The notes under the pieces are model-generated. The model did not search any database, was not told where the DNA came from, and saw nothing but the letters and a program-made list of their open reading frames with translations. From IMG/VR virus record IMGVR_UViG_3300021185_002017: DNA of 64,000 nucleotides; one strand, given 5' to 3'. The first letter of the stretch is position 1; each line of letters opens with the position of its first letter. Source of the stretch: a virus (taxonomy: Duplodnaviria > Caudoviricetes). Below are positions 1 to 10,508 of this stretch, in pieces. The position numbers were made by a program, and so were the translations under genes.

Positions 1-3000
1 CTGCACGAGTTTTAGTTACTGCTCCTGTGTCTACTTCTGCTCGTTTAGCATTATCGAGATCCATTTGTGCTAATGCTACTTCGCCGTCTAATGCTGTCTG
101 CTCAGTGATATCTGCAAAATCATTTATACCTTTTGCCTGTGCTGCAACTGCTGCATCTAATGCTTTCTGTGCTTCTTCTACAGATGGTGTATCTGGCGAT
201 ACCATAAGATCATCGCCGTACTCTGCACTAAACGATGCACCTGTGTAGCCTTCTTGTTTGCTAGGAGTTGTTGTATCAGTAGGTGTTGGTTGCTCTTGTT
301 GTATCGGACCAAATGTTTTCATAGCAGCCATCTTCATCAAGTCCATCATGTTGATGTTGTCCATGGACTCGTTTAATGTGTCTATGCCTTCTGCTAAATG
401 TGCAAACTGTTTTCCTGCTGCTTTGCCGTCTAACTGCTCCATTGCTGTATTAAAGTTTTCAACTGTTTGGCCCATGTTGTTCATGTTCTCTGTCATTGAA
501 ACTATTGCCGGTGCTGCCGCTCCAATCTTAGCAAGTTTATCAAACGGTGATTCAGAACCAAACAAACTACCTAGTCCATCAAGTACTCCGCTAATTAATC
601 CACCTGCACTAAATGCTGCCATACCAGCCGCTAGTGATACTAAACCAGGTCCTAGTAATAATACATTTTTAGGGTCTACATCGTTAAGCAGTTTGAAACT
701 GCCCATTAGTTCAACCATTGCTGGGGCAGCAATTTTAACTGCAACTGCAAATGGAACAAGTGCTAAGCCTAATGCACCAATTGCTAATGCACCTACGCCT
801 ATTACTGGTGCTATAGGTGCTAACAAGAATGCTGCCGCTCCTAATACACCTAATGCTACTGCACCTGCGGCTACGCCTGCCCAGTTAATGTCTGCAAACT
901 GTTGGAATGCTTTTCCTGCAACAAACATTGCTCCGCCTAATGCACCTAATACAACTGTACCTAGTAATGCTTTAGGATCTCCTAAAACTTTTAAACCTTG
1001 TCCTAAACCTGTTAATGTTCCTTTTAATAAGCCGCCTATACCTGCACCAATACCTTTACCTGCATCGCCTATGCCTTTGGCTAATGAACTTATGCTTTTT
1101 TGTATGCCTTTAGCAATATTGCTTACAGAGTTGCTAATACCTTTGCTTAAATTTGTTAGCACATCAGATATACCTTTGGATATATCTTTCATGCCTGTTG
1201 CTAATGACTTTGTAAAGCTCTTAGATTTTTTACTTGCAGTGTCCATGGCTTTTGAACCCATGTCCATTTCTTTTGCTTTGCCTGTGATCTTGTCTTTGGC
1301 TTTACCAAACAAGCCATCAAGTTTGCCGCCTGTTGCTTTGCTTATACCGCCTGTGACTTTGCCCATCATGTTCTTAGCACCATCCATCAAAGACTTGCCC
1401 ATGTTAGCAAACATCGATGGCATTGTTTTACCAAAGAGGCCTAACGCACCGCTTAATACTTTAAAGCCTACTACGCCCAGTGTTACTACACCTAGCAGTT
1501 TACCTAGCATATTACTAAGTCTTAGTCCGCTACTTTCTCCGTCACCGAAGATATTTGCTAATGCAGAAACTTTTTCTCCTAAGTAAGAGAAGACGGAAGT
1601 AATTGGACTTAACACTGCCATAACAGTATCTAATGCTGATGCAAGTACTTTAAATGCAAATACAACTGGGCCAATGAAAACACCTAGCACTTTCATAACA
1701 CTCATAAAGCCTTTACCGAACGACATGATACCTGAACCAATATCTTTTGCTGTTTGTATCATATCCGGTATTTTTTTAATAAAGTCTGCAATATATTCTG
1801 CGGCAGTTCCTATCATAGGTATTAATCGTTCGCCGAACGATTTACCTAAACTTTTAGCACCTTTTGTTAAATCAGTAACACCTTCGAGATTTTTCATACC
1901 AAAGATTTCGCCAATTACTGGCATCAATGCTTCGCTGATTGTTTTTTGTGCTGATTCAAATGCTTTAGTTAGTTTGCCTGTCTTGCCGCCAAGTTTACCT
2001 AAGTCGCCTACAGCATTACCTAGCCCACCTAAGAAGCCTAATTTTAAACTTTCAAAGATACCAGTAATCTCTTTCATTATCTTAGATAATGTATTAGTAC
2101 CGGTTTGTACGCCGTCCATGGTTAAACCTGCACCCATGTCTTTAATCTTTTTAGCAGATGCTTCAAATTGTATAATGGCTTTTGCCATACTAGCGGCCTG
2201 TGCGTCACCTGCTCTGTCTAGTAAGAATACTCTTTGTTTTTCTGCATCGGACAAATTACCAAGTTGCTGAGTCATGTCTAACGCCATTTGTTCAGCGTCT
2301 TCTTGACTTAGTGTACCGTTTTTAATTTGCTTAATGTAATCATTCATTGGGCCTGCTAAACTAGGCAGTGTTCTAATGTACCCAGTCATGCTTTCACTGA
2401 AGCCCATTGCGCCACTTGCCGCTGCTTCTGTCATTGCGGCTGCAATTGCTCCGCCTTCTTCTCCGCCCATAGCTCTCATAGTACTACCAAAATCAGTAAT
2501 ACCTGAGATAACTTTACCTCTTAATTCTTTGTCAAACTTTAACAAACTAGATGTAAGTACTGGAGTTTGCTGTATTAAACTGTCTGTAAACGCAACTATG
2601 TTATCAACACTTTCACCAAGTACTGATGCATATTTTTGTTGTGTTTTAATAGTTCTAGTAACTTGCTGAGTCATTCTAGTTTGATTCATTCCGTCTAGAA
2701 TACCCATTGCTCTTCGTTTTTGCAACTCAGCACCCATACGCTCAACACTGTCATCTAGACTCATGCCTAATTCTACACCACTGTTTGTTGCATCCATAAA
2801 TGCACCAGTGAGTTCAGTAAATGCTTTTTTGCTCATTGTTTGAACAACACCAGAGAAGTTACCAAGTGTTGCCGCGGCATCTATACCCATTGTGCTTAGG
2901 TCTGCCATTGCATCAGCGGCACTCATGCCACCTTGCCCTACACTGTCAGTAAATCCTGCACCTACTTTAGTAAGTTCGTTTAGTGTTCCGCCTAATCCCA

Positions 3001-3487
3001 TAAAGGAATCTACAAGCATTGTGCCGTATATAGTAATTGCTGCTATAGTACCTGTGATTGCTGTAGACGCTGTTTCGTACATTTTAACAAAAGCAGTTTC
3101 GCCTATTGCGGCACCTTTGTTAAATTTATCTAGTGATGCTGCTGCACCATCGGCTGCGGCTGAAATTTTACCAGGACTACCACCACCGTTAGTAACTGTA
3201 GGAGGTCCTGCAGGTGCACCTGGTGCTGGTTTGTTTTTAGCAAATTCTTTACCTAATCCTTCAGTTACCTTGTGTAAGAGGTCTCCATCTTTAATTAGTT
3301 CTTTATGACGCTTTTCTGCATCTTTAGAATCGGATTTTGCTTGTTCGAGTAATGCTTTAAGGCCTTCTTTGTTTTCTTTTGTTAAAGTCGTCAACATTGT
3401 CAGCATTGAATCTGCTGTACTTTCTAAACTCCAATCAGGTACAATTGCCTGCGACCCATCTGGTAAATCTATTCTCAACGATGCCAT
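1..3487 (-). CDS. Tail tape-measure protein (3'-truncated, runs off the window; >1160 aa)
   Basis: Absent from the ORF track because no stop lies in the window. ATG at 3487 with AAGAGGA SD reads MASLRIDLPDGSQAIVPDWSLE. The stretches I translated are open and Ala/Gly/Leu-rich helical with amphipathic repeats (GIGDAGKGIGAGIGGLLKG, ALGVLGAAAFLLAP). It lies next to a gp26-like gene. Confidence 0.85.
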   Translation of the reverse strand, partial: MASLRIDLPDGSQAIVPDWSLESTADSMLTMLTTLTKENKEGLKALLEQAKSDSKDAEKRHKELIKDGDLLHKVTEGLGKEFAKNKPAPGAPAGPPTVTNGGGSPGKISAAADGAAASLDKFNKGAAIGETAFVKMYETASTAITGTIAAITIYGTMLVDSFMGLGGTLNELTKVGAGFTDSVGQGGMSAADAMADLSTMGIDAAATLGNFSGVVQTMSKKAFTELTGAFMDATNSGVELGMSLDDSVERMGAELQKRRAMGILDGMNQTRMTQQVTRTIKTQQKYASVLGESVDNIVAFTDSLIQQTPVLTSSLLKFDKELRGKVISGITDFGSTMRAMGGEEGGAIAAAMTEAAASGAMGFSESMTGYIRTLPSLAGPMNDYIKQIKNGTLSQEDAEQMALDMTQQLGNLSDAEKQRVFLLDRAGDAQAASMAKAIIQFEASAKKIKDMGAGLTMDGVQTGTNTLSKIMKEITGIFESLKLGFLGGLGNAVGDLGKLGGKTGKLTKAFESAQKTISEALMPVIGEIFGMKNLEGVTDLTKGAKSLGKSFGERLIPMIGTAAEYIADFIKKIPDMIQTAKDIGSGIMSFGKGFMSVMKVLGVFIGPVVFAFKVLASALDTVMAVLSPITSVFSYLGEKVSALANIFGDGESSGLRLSNMLGKLLGVVTLGVVGFKVLSGALGLFGKTMPSMFANMGKSLMDGAKNMMGKVTGGISKATGGKLDGLFGKAKDKITGKAKEMDMGSKAMDTASKKSKSFTKSLATGMKDISKGISDVLTNLSKGISNSVSNIAKGIQKSISSLAKGIGDAGKGIGAGIGGLLKGTLTGLGQGLKVLGDPKALLGTVVLGALGGAMFVAGKAFQQFADINWAGVAAGAVALGVLGAAAFLLAPIAPVIGVGALAIGALGLALVPFAVAVKIAAPAMVELMGSFKLLNDVDPKNVLLLGPGLVSLAAGMAAFSAGGLISGVLDGLGSLFGSESPFDKLAKIGAAAPAIVSMTENMNNMGQTVENFNTAMEQLDGKAAGKQFAHLAEGIDTLNESMDNINMMDLMKMAAMKTFGPIQQEQPTPTDTTTPSKQEGYTGASFSAEYGDDLMVSPDTPSVEEAQKALDAAVAAQAKGINDFADITEQTALDGEVALAQMDLDNAKRAEVDTGAVTKTRA

Positions 3488-3582: not shown

Positions 3583-3590
3583 GATAAATA
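3583..3590 (+). promoter_or_regulatory. gp55-type late promoter (GATAAATA) for the gp26-like gene
   Basis: GATAAATA about 60 nt upstream of ATG 3648, divergent from the 3511 copy. Confidence 0.7.
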
Positions 3591-3647
3591 TGTAGTTAAA
3601 GAAGTAATAGTACATAATGTGCTAGTACAAATTTAGGATGATAACAT

Positions 3648-4517
3648 ATGACAAACAAACACAATCCATTAAGTTCGCATTTTAGAGCACCTAAACTTTT
3701 TGCACCTATTCCAAGTGCTGGAAAGTTTTACGACACTTCTGTGTTGGAAATGCCTGAAACGCTAGAACTACCTATATTTGCTATGACAGCAAAAGACGAA
3801 ATGATTATGAAGAATCCTGATGCACTACTAAACGGCGAGGCAGTTGCACAGGTTGTACACAGTTGTGTACCTAATGTCAAGAATGCTAGAGCAATGTTAA
3901 GCAGTGATATTGATGTATTACTAGTTGCTATACAAGGTGCCACATACGGCGATGAAGTAGAAGTAACTGCAGAATGCCCAAATTGTAATGAAGACCAAAC
4001 CGGTGTTGCAAGTGTTGAAGAAGCAATTAGTAGCATGGGTACTCTAGAAGAAGAGTATGTTGTAGAGCATGACGGGTTAAAAATTCAAATACGACCTTTT
4101 ACTTATGCCAGCACAATACAAGCAGGTATTACAAATTTCCAAAGCACTAGAAGTTTACAAGCATTAGCAGATGTTCCAGATGAAATGGAAAGACTAAGTT
4201 TGTTTAACAACAACTTCAAGCAGATTGCTGCATTAAACTTTAGTTTAATAGTAGACAGTGTTTCAAGTGTTAGTTTCACAGACGAAGAAGGCGAGGAACA
4301 AATTGTTACTGACAGAAATCATATCACAGAATTTTTAGACAATGCAGACAGCAAGATTGGTAAATCAATCGAAGACAAAATTGCAGAGCTAAACAGCATT
4401 GGTATTAATCATGAAATGAAAATGCAATGCGAAAAATGTCAGGAAGATAACGGTGAACCAGTAGTGTTCGAAAGCCGTGTAAACTTTGACCCAGTAAATT
4501 TTTTCACAGCTTCCTAG
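3648..4517 (+). CDS. gp26: T4 gp26-like baseplate hub assembly protein / tail assembly chaperone
   Basis: NPLSSHFRAPKLFAPIPSAGKFY N-terminus, MTAKDEMIMKNPDALLNG, and two CxxC pairs (CPNC, CEKC) typical of gp26-family proteins. Ends FDPVNFFTAS. Confidence 0.75.
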   Translation: MTNKHNPLSSHFRAPKLFAPIPSAGKFYDTSVLEMPETLELPIFAMTAKDEMIMKNPDALLNGEAVAQVVHSCVPNVKNARAMLSSDIDVLLVAIQGATYGDEVEVTAECPNCNEDQTGVASVEEAISSMGTLEEEYVVEHDGLKIQIRPFTYASTIQAGITNFQSTRSLQALADVPDEMERLSLFNNNFKQIAALNFSLIVDSVSSVSFTDEEGEEQIVTDRNHITEFLDNADSKIGKSIEDKIAELNSIGINHEMKMQCEKCQEDNGEPVVFESRVNFDPVNFFTAS

Positions 4518-4560
4518 CAACCTCCGAACCAGAGGACATAGTGGCGTACCTAGGTAAGCT
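4496..4560 (+). other. Putative -1 programmed ribosomal frameshift signal (A AAT TTT heptamer plus downstream stem)
   Basis: Heptamer 4496-4502 is in XXXYYYZ register with the gp26-like frame. Stem AGCTTCCTAG (4508-4517) pairs with CTAGG(T)AAGCT (4550-4560). The -1 frame is open into ORF 4541-4735. Confidence 0.65.
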
Positions 4561-4735
4561 CAAAGACGATCAAACTGCCCTAAGCAAAAACATTGCTGAA
4601 TTAGTAATATACAGTGAAGGTGCAGTTTCCTGGTCAGAGGCTTGGCATATCCCACCCTTAGATAGAGACCTGCTAATTAAAACACTTAATAAATTCAATA
4701 ACGCCAAAGCAGGCAACAATAACGAAATGCTCTAA
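4541..4735 (+). CDS. Small tail/baseplate assembly protein (gp51-like, or the C-terminal extension of a frameshift fusion)
   Basis: 64 aa, GTG start with a GAGGA SD-like sequence. The SWSEAWHIPPLDRDLLIKTL segment resembles the C-terminal parts of tail chaperones. It is in the -1 frame of the upstream gene. Confidence 0.6.
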   Translation: MAYLGKLKDDQTALSKNIAELVIYSEGAVSWSEAWHIPPLDRDLLIKTLNKFNNAKAGNNNEML

Positions 4736-4879
4736 GCGGAACGCTGGTTACTTCCGTCCGCGCCTAAATTTTTTCAATACCGTTAAATGCTTCATGCCCC
4801 TCGAAGTACATTTGTATCATAACGTGGATAGCAACATCTACAACCACTAACACAAAACACATTGTTAAGAAGACTGGCA

Positions 4880-5631: not shown

Positions 5632-6057
5632 TTATATCTTTTTCATCGCTTCACGGAGGATTTGTGAACCTCCTACTCTGACATTTATTATACCATTATA
5701 ATACTCGTCTGTCAAGAGAACTTTGCGATTAAATTGTTCTTCTGCTTCTAAATAACTTGCAACGCCTCTACTTGGGCATATATGCAGTATCTCTCTTGTA
5801 AATTTATCCTCGCCTAGTTCTAAAACGTCTGCTTGGAGATGATCCGAGCTACCCCAATAGGTACGCCAGTCACTTTCTTTTGTGCCTCGGCGTTTGTTCT
5901 TTTTTCCTTTTAGTGGTGGCTTGGTTGTTTTAAATTTTGCTAATTTTTTGCCTATGTACTTTTTGTCGTTAGTTGTGTTTGTGATTAAGTATACAAATGC
6001 TTCACAACCTTCTGGAAGTGTGTCTATAGTTTTGTTTTTATAAGTCCATTGCGACAT
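5632..6057 (-). CDS. GIY-YIG family endonuclease (Seg-like, short)
   Basis: FVYLITNTTNDKKYIGKK (GIY-YIG variant), WRTYWGSS, FTREILHIC, and YYNGII C-terminal Asn motif. Confidence 0.8.
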   Translation of the reverse strand: MSQWTYKNKTIDTLPEGCEAFVYLITNTTNDKKYIGKKLAKFKTTKPPLKGKKNKRRGTKESDWRTYWGSSDHLQADVLELGEDKFTREILHICPSRGVASYLEAEEQFNRKVLLTDEYYNGIINVRVGGSQILREAMKKI

Positions 6058-6066
6058 AGTACATAG

Positions 6067-6852
6067 TTATCTACTGCCAATGCTATGCACGAACTTATAT
6101 CGGCTAATCTGTTCTAAGTCGGGTTTGTGTGTAAGTTTACCTAACTCAATATATCCTATTGCTAATTTTGGGTCGTCAATTGGGTGTGGCAGTTTGTGTG
6201 CAATTTGCATACACCAACGCTTTACATGTTTTGTAACTGCTTTTGCATCAACACACTGATCTGGTGCAAACCATGCAAGTAAATCGCTTTTAACTATGCT
6301 AGTGGGAATTATATGTTCTGGTGGAACATCTACATCATTGTCGTAGCATATTTCCATTATGTGCTTACCTACATGTGGATAGTTCATGTACAAATAATTA
6401 TCTAGTCTAGTAGGCGAAAACAATTCGTAATCACTGTCCTCTAATGGTTGAGGTGAAGGCTCGCCTGTTGCTGTACTAATTAAGAAGCGTCTATTTTTAT
6501 TGCTTGTTATATCTTCTAAATGATGTAAGTGATAGTTAAACATACTAAGCCACTCTCGTAACTCTCCTGTTTCATTGTGTACATGGTCCGGGAAGTTTTC
6601 GTGTAGTCTATTTAGATCATCACTGCCTGTGAATATTTCAGGCTTGATGCGTTTGATGTTTTCTATACTGTGATCTAAGTTTGCTTGTACTTCTGCTATT
6701 GTTTCGCCCCAGTTATAAAACTGAGTACGACTTACAAACTCGTAATTGTTATCTTTGTAGTTGTTCCAAATTACTTCAGCAATACGGTTGTCAAATAGTT
6801 CGTATGTGAGTGTGTACTCTGCATTACGGCCTAAGTGTATATCAATCCACAT
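6067..6852 (-). CDS. Hypothetical protein (261 aa)
   Basis: Long ORF overlapping the gp46 stop by 11 nt, with phage-like codon usage and no family recognised. Confidence 0.7.
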   Translation of the reverse strand: MWIDIHLGRNAEYTLTYELFDNRIAEVIWNNYKDNNYEFVSRTQFYNWGETIAEVQANLDHSIENIKRIKPEIFTGSDDLNRLHENFPDHVHNETGELREWLSMFNYHLHHLEDITSNKNRRFLISTATGEPSPQPLEDSDYELFSPTRLDNYLYMNYPHVGKHIMEICYDNDVDVPPEHIIPTSIVKSDLLAWFAPDQCVDAKAVTKHVKRWCMQIAHKLPHPIDDPKLAIGYIELGKLTHKPDLEQISRYKFVHSIGSR

Positions 6853-8605
6853 ATTCGGTGTCAGTGTTGTACATAGTGAATCCTCCTTCCTTGACCACTG
6901 TTAGTACATTATTCACTCTACCTACTAGTTCTTCTTTGTGCGAAATAAGGAAAATATTTTTACCTTGCTCTCTATTCATCTTCTTAAGGATACTTAAGGC
7001 GTTCTCTACACCCATTGTATCCATACCTGAGTCGATTAATTCGTCAATACACATTAGGTTCATCGGCGCATTTAAGCTCTCATACATGTCTCTAAATGCC
7101 CAAGATAAGCCCAAAATAAGTCGATTGCGTTCGCCTCTACTTAGATTATCAAAGTCTAAGTCGCGTCCATATTCTGTTATTTCGACATTTAAATCGTTCG
7201 CAAATTTTACATCATGCGGCAATCCTAACTTATCTAAGTACCATGCTAACCTGTGATTTAGGTATGCAATGTTCTGATCAATAATCTTTTTACGGATAAA
7301 ACTATCCTTGCTTGTTAACAGTTTGTACAAGAACTCTTGATGATCTTTTAAGAATGTTAATTCATTTATTAAGTCAAAACTAACTTCTTGTAAGCCTGTT
7401 TCTTTGAGCATCTCTATTTGTTCAACATAAGGATTCTCTTCCTCTTGCTTAGTTTGGTACTGTTGAGCAAGAGATTCTAAATTGTGTTTGTGTTCGTATG
7501 CTTCTTCTACTGTAGCATAAAATGTACTTACTGTTTCAGGCACATCAATAATTTCCATTGCCTTTGTGATTTCATCAACCTTTTGCTCACTGGCAGCATT
7601 TAGCTCTGTTTCAGATGCAATCTTTTCTTTTAGTTCATTTATATAATCGCTGTGTGTATCCAAGTGTGATGTAGTTTGTTTACATGCATGGCATACACCT
7701 GCTTCAGCGTCTACTAAGTTTCCTTCAAGCTCTGTTAGTCTTTTTATGTTGCGTGTATTACTTGCTTGAATTGTTTTTAATTCTTTAGACAATGTGTTAT
7801 AATTGTCTTGCTGTTCTTTGGCACTAACATTTTGTTTGTGCGATTCAATCTCCTTGTTGACATCTAGTTCGCCTAGTGTAGTTATTGCTACTTCTAGATC
7901 TTTTACTTTCTGATTGTGTGTGGCTTCCCATGCTTTTTTACGGCTTTCTATTTCTTGTATGTTTTTATCTATACGACCGTTTGCATCTTTAACAGCACTG
8001 ATACGCAACTCTTCTTCTTTGATGTTGTCACGAGTAAATTTAGTTTTTTCTTTTAGCAACTCTGCTTTTGCACTTAGATCAGTAATACCTAGCAACTGCT
8101 CGATCATATCTTTTTGATCGTTGTTCTTCATACTGAGGAAAGGTTCGCTGTATGTGTTTAATGCAACCAAATGCTTAAACATGTTATGCGGAAAGCCGAT
8201 AATCTTTTCAATTGCTTTTTGTGTTTCTCTACTATCGCCTTGCTGTTCTTCGCTTATAGTATCTTCACCGTTTACTATAAACTTTAACACATTAGGTCTA
8301 CGACCACGCTCAATACGATAGTCAACACCCTTAGACTCAAACTCAACAGTGGTCATCATGCCTTTACTGTTTGTTTTGTTAATTAAGTTATCGCGGCGAA
8401 TGTTAGTAAGTGCCTCACCATACAATGCATAACTGAGTGCATTAATAATAGTTGTCTTACCTGTACCGTTTCTACTACCATCTCCACCCATGTCTAAGTT
8501 ATGACCTAGCACTAGGGTTAGTTGACAGTTGTCAAAGTTTACTGCTTGAGTATTGTTGCCCACACTCATAAAGTTACGGGCTGATACATTTTTAATCTTT
8601 AGCAT
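6842..8605 (-). CDS. gp46: Recombination endonuclease ATPase subunit (SbcC/Rad50-like)
   Basis: Walker A GSRNGTGKT, coiled coil with CHAC zinc hook, signature LSRGE, Walker B/D-loop CIDELIDSGMD, H-loop ISH. Confidence 0.95.
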   Translation of the reverse strand: MLKIKNVSARNFMSVGNNTQAVNFDNCQLTLVLGHNLDMGGDGSRNGTGKTTIINALSYALYGEALTNIRRDNLINKTNSKGMMTTVEFESKGVDYRIERGRRPNVLKFIVNGEDTISEEQQGDSRETQKAIEKIIGFPHNMFKHLVALNTYSEPFLSMKNNDQKDMIEQLLGITDLSAKAELLKEKTKFTRDNIKEEELRISAVKDANGRIDKNIQEIESRKKAWEATHNQKVKDLEVAITTLGELDVNKEIESHKQNVSAKEQQDNYNTLSKELKTIQASNTRNIKRLTELEGNLVDAEAGVCHACKQTTSHLDTHSDYINELKEKIASETELNAASEQKVDEITKAMEIIDVPETVSTFYATVEEAYEHKHNLESLAQQYQTKQEEENPYVEQIEMLKETGLQEVSFDLINELTFLKDHQEFLYKLLTSKDSFIRKKIIDQNIAYLNHRLAWYLDKLGLPHDVKFANDLNVEITEYGRDLDFDNLSRGERNRLILGLSWAFRDMYESLNAPMNLMCIDELIDSGMDTMGVENALSILKKMNREQGKNIFLISHKEELVGRVNNVLTVVKEGGFTMYNTDTEYVD

Positions 8606-8606
8606 A

Positions 8607-9626
8607 TTAAATTTCTAACTCGTTATAGATATCGATTAACTTATCTCGTTCGATTGTGGTAGAATCAATTGTGTCTAATTGTTGTAGCACTATTTGATCT
8701 ACACTTTCAAATTTTATCTCACTGCCTTCAAATTGCTCTTCTTCTTCTTTGATAGGAATAAGTTGCAATTCCCTAACATTATATTGTTCAGCAAACTTCT
8801 CTTTAATGAAAGTTGCCTCTTCATATGAAATACTGATATCTAATTTTACACGAGCATAGGTATACTTGTCAAGTAAATTCTCATGGTTGTCCAGCAATTG
8901 TTTAAGACTAAACACTCTGTACTTAGGACATTCGCTCCAATTTACATAGATAGGTTCCTCTCCCCATGTTAAGAACATAGCACCACGCTCGTCATCATCT
9001 ACATCTGCATAGTTGTGAGGGAAAGCATTACCTAAGTAATGTATATTGTTTTTAAACTGACGCTTATGGAAGTGTCCTGAGAATACATATTCTGGGCCTG
9101 ATAACATTTTATCATTAATGCCTCCGCCATGGTCTGGCATCTCTACCATTGCATTCATTTTAAAATACGGAAGTTCAAAATGACCAAACATGTACTTGAC
9201 TTGCATCTTGGCAACTTTTTTGTATTCGTCGCCAACTAGCCATGGAATGATAGCAACATCATCTTGCTGGAAGTGTTCGTCTACCATTACAAAGTTAGAA
9301 AGTTCTCTAGCATATTCAATACTGTTCATATCTCGTTTGTCTCTATAATAGAGATCGTGATTACCAGTTATAAAATATACTGTTTCAAAATTGTCATTTA
9401 GTTTTTTAAGATCTTTAATTGTTGCATTCATTGTTGCAACATTAATACTTGATCGGTGATGCATCCAGTCACCAAGGAAAATACATGTTTCAGCATTCCT
9501 TGCTTTTGCTTCTGCAATAAACCAATCTATGTATCTGTGGCAATCATCTAAGTGTAGACGACTGTTTTGTTTTAGCCCGTAATGTATATCCGTAAAACAG
9601 GCCGCTGTTTTAAACAACTGACTCAT
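8607..9626 (-). CDS. gp47: Recombination endonuclease nuclease subunit (SbcD/Mre11-like)
   Basis: Metallophosphoesterase motifs DIH, GDW, GNHD, GHF and SGHFH, adjacent to gp46. Confidence 0.95.
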   Translation of the reverse strand: MSQLFKTAACFTDIHYGLKQNSRLHLDDCHRYIDWFIAEAKARNAETCIFLGDWMHHRSSINVATMNATIKDLKKLNDNFETVYFITGNHDLYYRDKRDMNSIEYARELSNFVMVDEHFQQDDVAIIPWLVGDEYKKVAKMQVKYMFGHFELPYFKMNAMVEMPDHGGGINDKMLSGPEYVFSGHFHKRQFKNNIHYLGNAFPHNYADVDDDERGAMFLTWGEEPIYVNWSECPKYRVFSLKQLLDNHENLLDKYTYARVKLDISISYEEATFIKEKFAEQYNVRELQLIPIKEEEEQFEGSEIKFESVDQIVLQQLDTIDSTTIERDKLIDIYNELEI

Positions 9627-9632
9627 ATAAAA

Positions 9633-10508
9633 CTACTCTGGGTTATTTTCTTGCTCTGCAGCCGATTCAGCAGCATCTCTTAAACTACGAATTTCTTCTT
9701 CGTGTTTAATCTGTCTACTGAAACTAGGCATGTGTCCTTGATCAATAAGAATATCATCTCTGATAGTTTGGTTGCGTTTCTCAATGTTTAATACTCTTGT
9801 GAAACTGTTATTGACAACTGCTGTGTAATATGCAAATGGATTGTCCGACTTAGACTCGTCAAACTGTAAACCAATTTGAGATAACTGCACTAATGCTTGT
9901 CCTCTCATTTCGTCTACATAAGTATAACCACGCCAGTTAGCTCTGTGTGAATAACGCTCTACTAGTTTTAAGAACATAGTTCCTAACTTGTTTGTTATTC
10001 TTCCGTGATTAACATTAAACTGTCCATTACTTAAACTTCCTTCCCAATGACTACGAACAACTTCTTTTAACTCTGTGCCTTGATAAGCATAATGCTTAAA
10101 TGCCGGGAAGTTTACTTTTGCTCTTTCGTCTGCAGGTGTTTTAGGATTCTTCTTCCTGCCTGGCTCTAGTGGAATGTGGTCCATGTTCATTACACGGAAT
10201 ACTAATTCTTCTAAGTCAAACGAATCTGGGTCTACAGCAAACTCTTTTTGCTTAGGCTTGTTTTTGTAATCTGCCCTGTCATGCGTAGACATTGCTACAG
10301 CATACGCTTCGCTTTGTAGTTTATTTGCTTTGTTTAATCTTGCTTCTGCAATAGTTGCATCGTTTATATCTTTGATATCACGGACTATGATGTCATAATT
10401 ACTGTACTTCTCATCTGAAATCTGGCAGTAAGTTAGTTTACTTTTGTTGATTTCTTTTAGGATATCCTTGTTGTTTAGATAATTTACTGGTGCTGGTTTC
10501 TTTATCAT
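9633..10508 (-). CDS. gp55: RNA polymerase sigma factor for late transcription
   Basis: NYLNNKDILKEI N-terminus, NWRGYTYVDEM and QFDESKSDNPFAYYT motifs; T4-like gp55-gp47-gp46 order. Confidence 0.9.
   Translation of the reverse strand: MIKKPAPVNYLNNKDILKEINKSKLTYCQISDEKYSNYDIIVRDIKDINDATIAEARLNKANKLQSEAYAVAMSTHDRADYKNKPKQKEFAVDPDSFDLEELVFRVMNMDHIPLEPGRKKNPKTPADERAKVNFPAFKHYAYQGTELKEVVRSHWEGSLSNGQFNVNHGRITNKLGTMFLKLVERYSHRANWRGYTYVDEMRGQALVQLSQIGLQFDESKSDNPFAYYTAVVNNSFTRVLNIEKRNQTIRDDILIDQGHMPSFSRQIKHEEEIRSLRDAAESAAEQENNPE

Follow-up and report, generated by a model that had tools for sequence, protein, structure and literature searches.

A probable programmed -1 frameshift, conserved among relatives, that would yield gp26-like and gp51-like proteins from one gene of a marine giant phage

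Programmed -1 frameshifting of the tail assembly chaperone gene is considered almost universal among phages with long tails, the T4-like phages being the best-known exception. In systems of the lambda G/GT type, the part common to both products binds the tape measure protein and the extension binds the tube protein, and the products are absent from virions; the E/E+E' pair of phage P2 is another tail assembly chaperone frameshift. The conservation of this frameshift in tail assembly chaperone genes (gpG/gpGT in lambda) was reportedly described by Xu, Hendrix and Duda in 2004. Here we analyse a window of 64,000 nucleotides (nt) from the IMG/VR virus record IMGVR_UViG_3300021185_002017, an 80-kb fragment of a marine giant phage with an estimated completeness of about 20%, and in it the gene at 3648-4517, which is related to gene 26 of T4, together with the reading frame that follows it. 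Leiman et al. (2010, PMC3004832) count gp26 and gp51 of T4 among the chaperones of hub assembly and state that the particle does not contain gp51.

Gene 3648-4517 is very probably a combined gene-26/gene-51 locus, from which a short and a long form would be made by means of a -1 frameshift. A first-pass annotation of the window had proposed a programmed -1 frameshift that joins a gp26-like gene to the next open reading frame (ORF), and this proposal is supported by the conservation of the site, by its phasing and by the lack of a conserved start for the second frame. What the computations establish is the site with its phase and its conservation, that the -1 frame is coding, that no start for it is conserved and that its product is homologous to gp51.

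Slip site and -1 extension

The gene ends with CCA GTA AAT TTT TTC ACA GCT TCC TAG (4491-4517). As stated in the first-pass annotation, the heptamer A_AAT_TTT (4496-4502) stands in the X_XXY_YYZ phase of the zero frame. Another heptamer in the same phase, T_TTT_TTC (4499-4505), overlaps it. No stop codon interrupts the -1 frame from 4490 to 4735, where it closes with TAA (4733-4735), and it runs into ORF 4541-4735 in the way that had been claimed; the +1 frame meets a stop 13 codons beyond the zero-frame stop. A slip at either heptamer gives the identical fusion of 362 amino acids (aa), ...PVNFFHSFLATSEPEDIVAYLGK..., with the junction reading ...PVNFFHSFLATSEPEDIV..., versus 289 aa for the short form.

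In the window the 10-mer AAATTTTTTC is present in two copies, and at least two copies were also found in 12 of 100 shuffled sequences. Its count alone is not beyond chance, and taken by itself it could belong to a coincidental overlap or to a decaying gene, the -1 ORF being unexpressed or a remnant. The case for a frameshift is therefore built on the comparison with relatives. The other exact copy of AAATTTTTTC lies at 4766-4775, past the stop of the extension, at a place where no ORF of the + strand is listed.

All 37 close relatives from IMG/VR (55-84% identity) keep A_AAT_TTT, i. e. 38 of 38 sequences if the window is counted, and all 37 carry an extension of 76-80 aa in the -1 frame. T_TTT_TTC is present in 27 of them. 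The other ten have TTT TCC in place of TTT TTC, a change that replaces Phe by Ser in frame 0, is synonymous in frame -1 and leaves A_AAT_TTT as the sole intact heptamer. Among the 32 unique sequences of the clade, the third-position entropy falls to 0.35-0.46 in the 8-codon windows that begin at codons 279-282, which comprise the last 11 codons; these are the lowest values of the whole gene, for which the mean is 1.26. No variation at all is seen at the wobble positions of GTA (A) and AAT (T). The invariance of the wobble A points to selection for tRNA re-pairing at A_AAU_UUU in this clade. In the -1 frame the extension has a codon periodicity of 0.93/0.66/1.47 across the codon positions.

Outside the clade, T_TTT_TTY was found in 21 distant T4-like phages. 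Carriers among the giant phages are Rak2-like phages, GAP32, 121Q, PA5oct, Atu_ph07, Phosso and Xoo-sp13; others are the cyanophages S-SSM6a, S-WAM1 and S-RSM4, Aeromonas phage Aeh1, Citrobacter phage Ci1, the KVP40-like Vibrio phage K491, Stenotrophomonas phage Marzo and Desulfovibrio phage 7757. The -1 extension of these distant phages has 55-75 aa, and the +1 frame is closed within 2-29 codons. Rhizobium phage AF3 has T_TTT_TTG (L063:1361-1375), and its gp51-like -1 extension is still there. The jumbo phages detected by tblastn at 22-39% identity are of the Rak2, GAP32, 121Q, PA5oct, Atu_ph07, Phosso and Xoo-sp13 types. In 13 diverse jumbo phages the tail of the zero frame always reads NNT TTT TTY, followed by 1-11 codons and the stop; the codon before TTT differs (Asn, His, Ser, Arg, Tyr or Ala) and ends in T in every case. 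Past this stop, the -1 frame runs 58-75 codons further, the +1 frame only 2-29.

In the relatives the zero-frame stop lies 3-33 nt past the heptamer. None of the 120 closest proteins (of 760 hits) and none of the best 150 cluster representatives (of 1093 hits) reads in frame beyond the FF motif. The heptamer and the -1 phasing are present in all relatives examined, with the exception of the T4-type two-gene phages and of one phage of the Ackermannviridae. The check suggested with the first-pass annotation, the conservation of heptamer and phasing in homologous loci, was thus passed both in the clade and in the distant phages. Its choice of heptamer has to be qualified: A_AAT_TTT is restricted to the clade and invariant in it, but the heptamer conserved family-wide is T_TTT_TTC. 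Site, phase and extension are conserved in about 60 independent genomes from several virus families, and the extension is under purifying selection. With these comparative data, a chance overlap or a decaying gene is effectively refuted.

Table 1. Positions in the window of the features discussed in the text (stop codons included).
Feature	Position	Strand	Remark
Zero-frame gene, 289-aa short form, predicted gp26 equivalent	3648-4517	+	PF12322 T4_baseplate
Slippery run A_AAT_TTT_TTC	4496-4505	+	two overlapping in-phase X_XXY_YYZ heptamers
Zero-frame stop codon TAG	4515-4517	+	9 nt past heptamer T_TTT_TTC
-1 frame extension	4505-4735	+	76 codons from CAC 4505 plus TAA 4733-4735; predicted gp51-type C-terminal module
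GAGGA, then GTG	4532-4536, 4541-4543	+	putative own start of 64-aa ORF
Candidate stimulatory stem-loop	4508-4517 / 4550-4560; inner hairpin 4521-4524 / 4532-4535	+	5 nt past A_AAT_TTT
Tape-measure-like gene, putative gp29 analogue	2-3487	-	>1162 aa, runs off window, divergent neighbour

Routes to expression of the extension

Several observations weigh against a frameshift at this locus, or against parts of such a reading. The FF motif is kept as a protein motif even in T4, where it is encoded by TTC TTT, so that coding constraint explains part of the conservation of the T run. The exception among the Ackermannviridae, Vibrio phage VAP7, has no canonical heptamer; its gp26-like gene (L064:1250-1473) ends with CAC GTT TTT CGC TAA TG, and here an ATG overlaps the stop. 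The gp51-like module of VAP7 could form a coupled gene of its own; the other conceivable route to it is a single-tRNA slip on T_TTT_C. An ATG overlaps the zero-frame stop also in Phosso, Atu_ph07, XbC2, 121Q, K491, Marzo and AF3, and coupled re-initiation could hence occur there as well. The function in assembly, moreover, is suggested by analogy with the genetics of T4, not of the phage in the window.

The other points of this kind concern RNA structure. Canonical -1 frameshift signals include a stimulatory structure 5-9 nt downstream of the slip site, and the first-pass annotation had proposed a stem at this place. The stem-loop 4508-4560 with its inner CCTC/GAGG hairpin does exist as the predicted minimum free energy fold (-13.4 kcal/mol), but it is not significant, with a z of -0.85 and 38 of 200 shuffled sequences at least as stable. 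Neither is its 3' arm conserved. The arm is confined to the nearest relatives, and there to sequences that preserve the protein motif YLGKL; it showed no covariation among relatives, the result of another check that had been suggested. RNAalifold gave no downstream consensus structure, and no single fold is found clade-wide. We also tried the window stem as a clade-wide element and rejected it; 61% of cells were paired in 26 unique relatives, which equals the mean of the shuffled sequences.

Folding as such is pronounced at this position. The 70 nt past the heptamer had a mean z of -2.09 in 34 loci versus -0.21 in 170 control windows from the same genes (Mann-Whitney p 2e-9, a value that is optimistic because the loci are related and not independent). 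In the sister subclade, a GAAGC element about 60 nt downstream is the pairing partner of the same 5' arm, two pairs showing covariation. Stable folding just past the slip site is a recurrent trait over the loci. A stimulatory structure in the window is plausible, and it is possible that the window stem acts as a local stimulator.

The overlapping ATG codons and the TAATG of VAP7, which lacks a canonical heptamer, would also fit a separate small gene, from which a free protein of 64 aa is made by initiation at GAGGA-GTG 4541 or by termination-reinitiation, with no fusion. GAGGA is situated 4 nt ahead of the GTG, and small ORFs have been annotated here in other phages (GAP32_242, the 44-aa g51 of S-RSM4, and the 'baseplate hub assembly catalyst' of K491 and AF3). 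However, the GTG, codon 15 of the extension in the window, is retained in the nearest relatives only. In the other clade members the first ATG, GTG or TTG of the -1 frame comes at extension codon 21-51; the extension of RaK2 has none of the three before codon 33, and that of PA5oct has none at all. An alignment of the -1 extensions of 23 phages (A3), which also served as a hidden Markov model (HMM), begins at the slip site with the pattern FF-(R/H)-x-x-L-...-PEEI-...-P-x-ER, and from the slip site up to the GTG the -1 frame encodes conserved residues (FFHSFLA.s.PE). GAGGA is, as judged from this alignment, more likely to represent the codons of the conserved PE(E/D)I(V) motif than a ribosome-binding signal. 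In addition, the starts annotated in different phages fall on differing alignment positions, and T4 gp51 contains the same module as an in-frame fusion. We therefore consider a separate small gene very unlikely. The first-pass annotation had named expression solely from GAGGA-GTG as the finding that would speak against a frameshift; such expression is contradicted by the lack of the start in most relatives and by the conservation of the residues upstream of it.

In GenBank, the starts given for the extension have inconsistent positions among jumbo phages, or nothing is annotated. Stand-alone ORFs are recorded as 'g51', as 'baseplate hub assembly catalyst' (44-58 aa) or as hypothetical protein (L065:1417-1551, L060:1546-1713, L063:1375-1551, L052:1493-1684), and in the records of RaK2, PA5oct, Aeh1 and S-WAM1 the extension is unannotated. 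It is mis-annotated or missed in many GenBank records, and this looks systematic.

The long form could also arise on the RNA level, if RNA polymerase added one U at the T6 run and the ribosome did not shift. The homopolymer is there, and one added U would lead to exactly the same protein. Metatranscriptome contigs from three studies extend across the slip site; they agree with the DNA, are free of indels and have the genomic T6. The major RNA form is thus unedited, which has no bearing on frameshifting itself, and a minor edited species is compatible with RNA data at the contig level. Yet T6 is short for programmed transcriptional slippage, and the ten relatives with T5 only (AAATTTTTCC) retain the extension. 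The invariant wobble A of GTA is relevant to tRNA re-pairing on A_AAU_UUU, not to slippage of the polymerase on a T run. Furthermore, 20 of the 21 distant T_TTT_TTY carriers have C as the third base of TTC, whereas a longer T run would favour polymerase slippage. Transcriptional slippage is, on this evidence, most improbable.

For the ribosomal -1 frameshift, which we prefer, the following course of events can be proposed. Most ribosomes would stay in the zero frame and stop at TAG 4515-4517, yielding the 289-aa equivalent of gp26. A fraction of them would slip back by one base on A_AAT_TTT_TTC; the tRNAs in the P- and A-sites would re-pair on AAA_UUU or UUU_UUU, and reading would go on in the -1 frame until TAA 4733-4735. 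The product of the slip would be a 362-aa equivalent of gp51, composed of a zinc-binding PF12322 core and a helical module of about 73 aa. The stem-loop that starts 5 nt downstream may assist the slip, and the slip would set the ratio of short to long form. Both forms would, by homology to gp26 and gp51 of T4, help to assemble the baseplate hub around the tape measure protein. The actual shift of the ribosome, its efficiency and the function in assembly are inferences.

Such a signal would resemble that of Escherichia coli dnaX (tau/gamma), which likewise has a bacterial-type tandem -1 slip at a homopolymer-rich heptamer, followed by a stem-loop that may act as stimulator, and which likewise gives two forms with a common N-terminal core. 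In dnaX, however, the shifted product is the shorter one, whereas in the window it would be the longer one. dnaX has an upstream Shine-Dalgarno-like stimulator; none was noticed in the window.

Relation to T4 genes 26 and 51

The 289-aa product matches PF12322 (T4_baseplate) in Pfam with 65.6 bits (gathering cut-off 24.5 bits; E 7e-18; residues 49-268), and it also matches phrog_150. In an alignment of 13 sequences that includes T4 gp26 (A1), the residues C110, C113, C261, C264, F285 and F286 are invariant. The AlphaFold2 (AF2) model of the short form has a predicted local distance difference test score (pLDDT) of 95.7. A search of BFVD with this model gave 74 matches at E <= 1e-3, with 'Baseplate hub assembly protein, T4-like' at a TM-score of 0.87-0.88 and a root mean square deviation (rmsd) of 2.4. 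No relative with a solved structure was found in the PDB, by sequence or by Foldseek (E <= 1e-3), and the search of AFDB Swiss-Prot gave no usable match.

T4 gp51 consists of PF12322 (residues 1-201, E 3.9e-52) and a tail, ..DVFKLLVNPDEIFTFY...SKMIPAERGFVLKLIEK, in one frame. Through the whole junction, the conceptual frameshift products align collinearly with this tail; the extension is also collinear with the in-frame gp51 of KFS-EC and KARL-1, and a six-frame whole-genome search with the A3 HMM matched the C-termini of these two gp51 proteins. The extensions of the cyanophages and of Aeh1 match phrog_634, 'baseplate hub assembly catalyst', with E values from 4e-31 to 2e-14. With hhalign, a profile of the jumbo-clade extensions alone (A6) matched a profile of gp51 tails and T4-type extensions (A7) with E 4.6e-5 and a probability of 69%; the match of A3 to the lone T4 gp51 sequence was weak, with a probability of 3%. 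The extension of the window itself had no direct match in PHROG or Pfam, and its AF2 model has four helices (pLDDT 81). These sequence comparisons identify the extension as the module found at the C-terminus of T4 gp51. In T4, the short and the long form would accordingly correspond to two unlinked genes, 26 and 51. The first-pass annotation was right in calling the zero-frame gene gp26-like and had missed the gp51 identity of the extension.

The number of PF12322 copies was counted in ten complete genomes. All seven genomes with the slip site have one copy, whereas T4, KFS-EC and KARL-1, which lack the slip site, have two (genes 26 and 51). The 80-kb record of the window has one. T4 gp26 ends with ...KEFFELL* (TTC TTT, non-slippery), at the position where the zero-frame products of other phages end. 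A maximum-likelihood tree, which has a midpoint root only, groups the gp26 paralogues with those of gp51 in one clade (support 99/97); this clade is sister to the frameshift gene of Aeh1 and nested among the frameshift-bearing lineages. The distribution of slip site and copy number indicates that the two-gene state is the derived one.

T4 gp26 shares the PF12322 core, the four Cys and the terminal FF with the short form of the window. T4 gp51, with its core and a C-terminal helical module bearing FK/FR-LL...P-x-ER motifs, has the same architecture as the predicted long form. Gene 26 of T4 is transcribed divergently from the region of the tape measure gene, as is the gene in the window. In T4, however, the forms come from two paralogous, divergently transcribed genes, in the window from one gene with a -1 frameshift; the core of the window protein is about 80 aa longer than that of T4, and its extension has a helical insertion of about 16 aa. 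T4 also has a gene 26' (L013:3803-4090, - strand), an annotated internal in-frame start that leads to a second, shorter product. T4 thus makes more than one form from the gp26/gp51 gene family by a route other than frameshifting.

These sequence data indicate that most T4-related lineages have a frameshift of this kind, in the gp26/gp51 family instead of a chaperone family of the lambda type; the lineages concerned are the cyanophages, Aeh1, the KVP40-type phages and the giant phages of the Rak2, GAP32 and PA5oct types. T4 appears to have swapped the frameshift for two paralogous genes. By this replacement two poorly understood assembly factors of T4 are linked, and their roles become testable. 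We found no report of a gene 26/51 frameshift in the literature outside subscription journals, including a 2016 review on recoding (PMC5009743), and none is mentioned in the accessible parts of the T4 tail review (PMC3004832) and of the paper on phage CBB (PMC5259590).

Comparison with lambda G/GT and neighbouring features

The first-pass annotation had taken the pair for a G/GT-type chaperone system. Like the lambda genes, the locus has a predicted -1 slip on an X_XXY_YYZ heptamer, located shortly ahead of the stop codon of a tail-assembly gene, from which a short and a C-terminally extended form would be made at a fixed ratio; it adjoins a tape-measure-like gene, and its T4 homologue gp51 is reported to be absent from virions. 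The protein family and the fold are different. Among known tail assembly chaperone families there was no Pfam match (PF12322 being the only match) and no Foldseek match in the PDB at E <= 1e-3, and the VIA-align result with the HK97 chaperone 2ob9 (Z 6.3, rmsd 6.4, rank 26) was within the noise range of the tool. The predicted frameshift, the logic of two forms and the tape-measure neighbour stand, while a relationship to the chaperone families in sequence or fold was not found; the likeness to G/GT is best taken as an analogy of logic and not as family membership.

The product of the neighbouring gene resembles tape-measure PHROGs weakly (E 2e-5 to 5e-4), and the divergent orientation of the two genes, also part of the first-pass annotation, was borne out. 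GAP32, CBB and PA5oct share this divergent neighbour, as does RaK2, in which it is annotated for its similarity to a tape measure protein, and most jumbo-phage homologues are divergent from the gene of a large, tape-measure-like virion protein. Lambda G is situated directly upstream of the tape measure gene, and the co-directional order of tube, chaperone and tape measure genes seen in lambda does not occur in the window, where the gene is divergent. In K491, AF3 and Aeh1 (L060, L063 and L054) the frameshift gene is found between a gene annotated as tail tube and that of a protein of about 600-655 aa, an arrangement that corresponds to the classical tube-chaperone-tape measure order. Of the three proteins of about 600 aa, only that of K491 has a tape-measure match, and this one is weak (E 1e-6). 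A search of Aeh1, K491, AF3, S-SSM6a and Ci1 with phrog_1283 (T4 gp29) found nothing. CBB_250 and CBB_249 are not among the entries from virion mass spectrometry in the accessible part of the CBB paper (PMC5259590).

A wider interpretation, which we offer tentatively and with some doubt, is that a single frameshifting PF12322 gene is the ancestral state of the T4-like superfamily and the T4-type counterpart of the G/GT tape-measure chaperones. The short form would then serve to coat or hold the gp29 analogue, which is the tape measure and hub protein; the long form, being rare, would use its gp51-type extension to bring in the partner that follows in assembly, and genes 26 and 51 of T4 would be a duplicated, subfunctionalised version of the single gene. 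If this is true, it would give a concrete role to the unexplained 'catalytic' gp51 and to the elusive gp26, and the T4-like phages would no more be an exception to tail-chaperone frameshifting.

Around gene 3648-4517, a terminator scan found no terminator-like site, and promoter-like sites for sigma-70 were no commoner than in shuffled sequence. Upstream of the ATG at 3648, GATAAATA at 3583-3590 is similar to the late promoters of T4. In two studies, contigs from RNA libraries start at 3609 and 3610, a little ahead of this ATG; contigs cannot prove a transcript start.

Further along the window, an ORF of 141 aa at 5632-6057 (- strand) has homing-endonuclease PHROG matches (phrog_7363 and phrog_314), and for the stretch of about 400 nt after it only short ORFs are listed. 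The region 6842-10508 (- strand) has homologues of gp46 and gp47 (SbcC/SbcD-like), followed by a gp55-like late sigma factor of 291 aa. T4 gp55 has about 185 aa, so that the gp55-like protein of the window is much longer.

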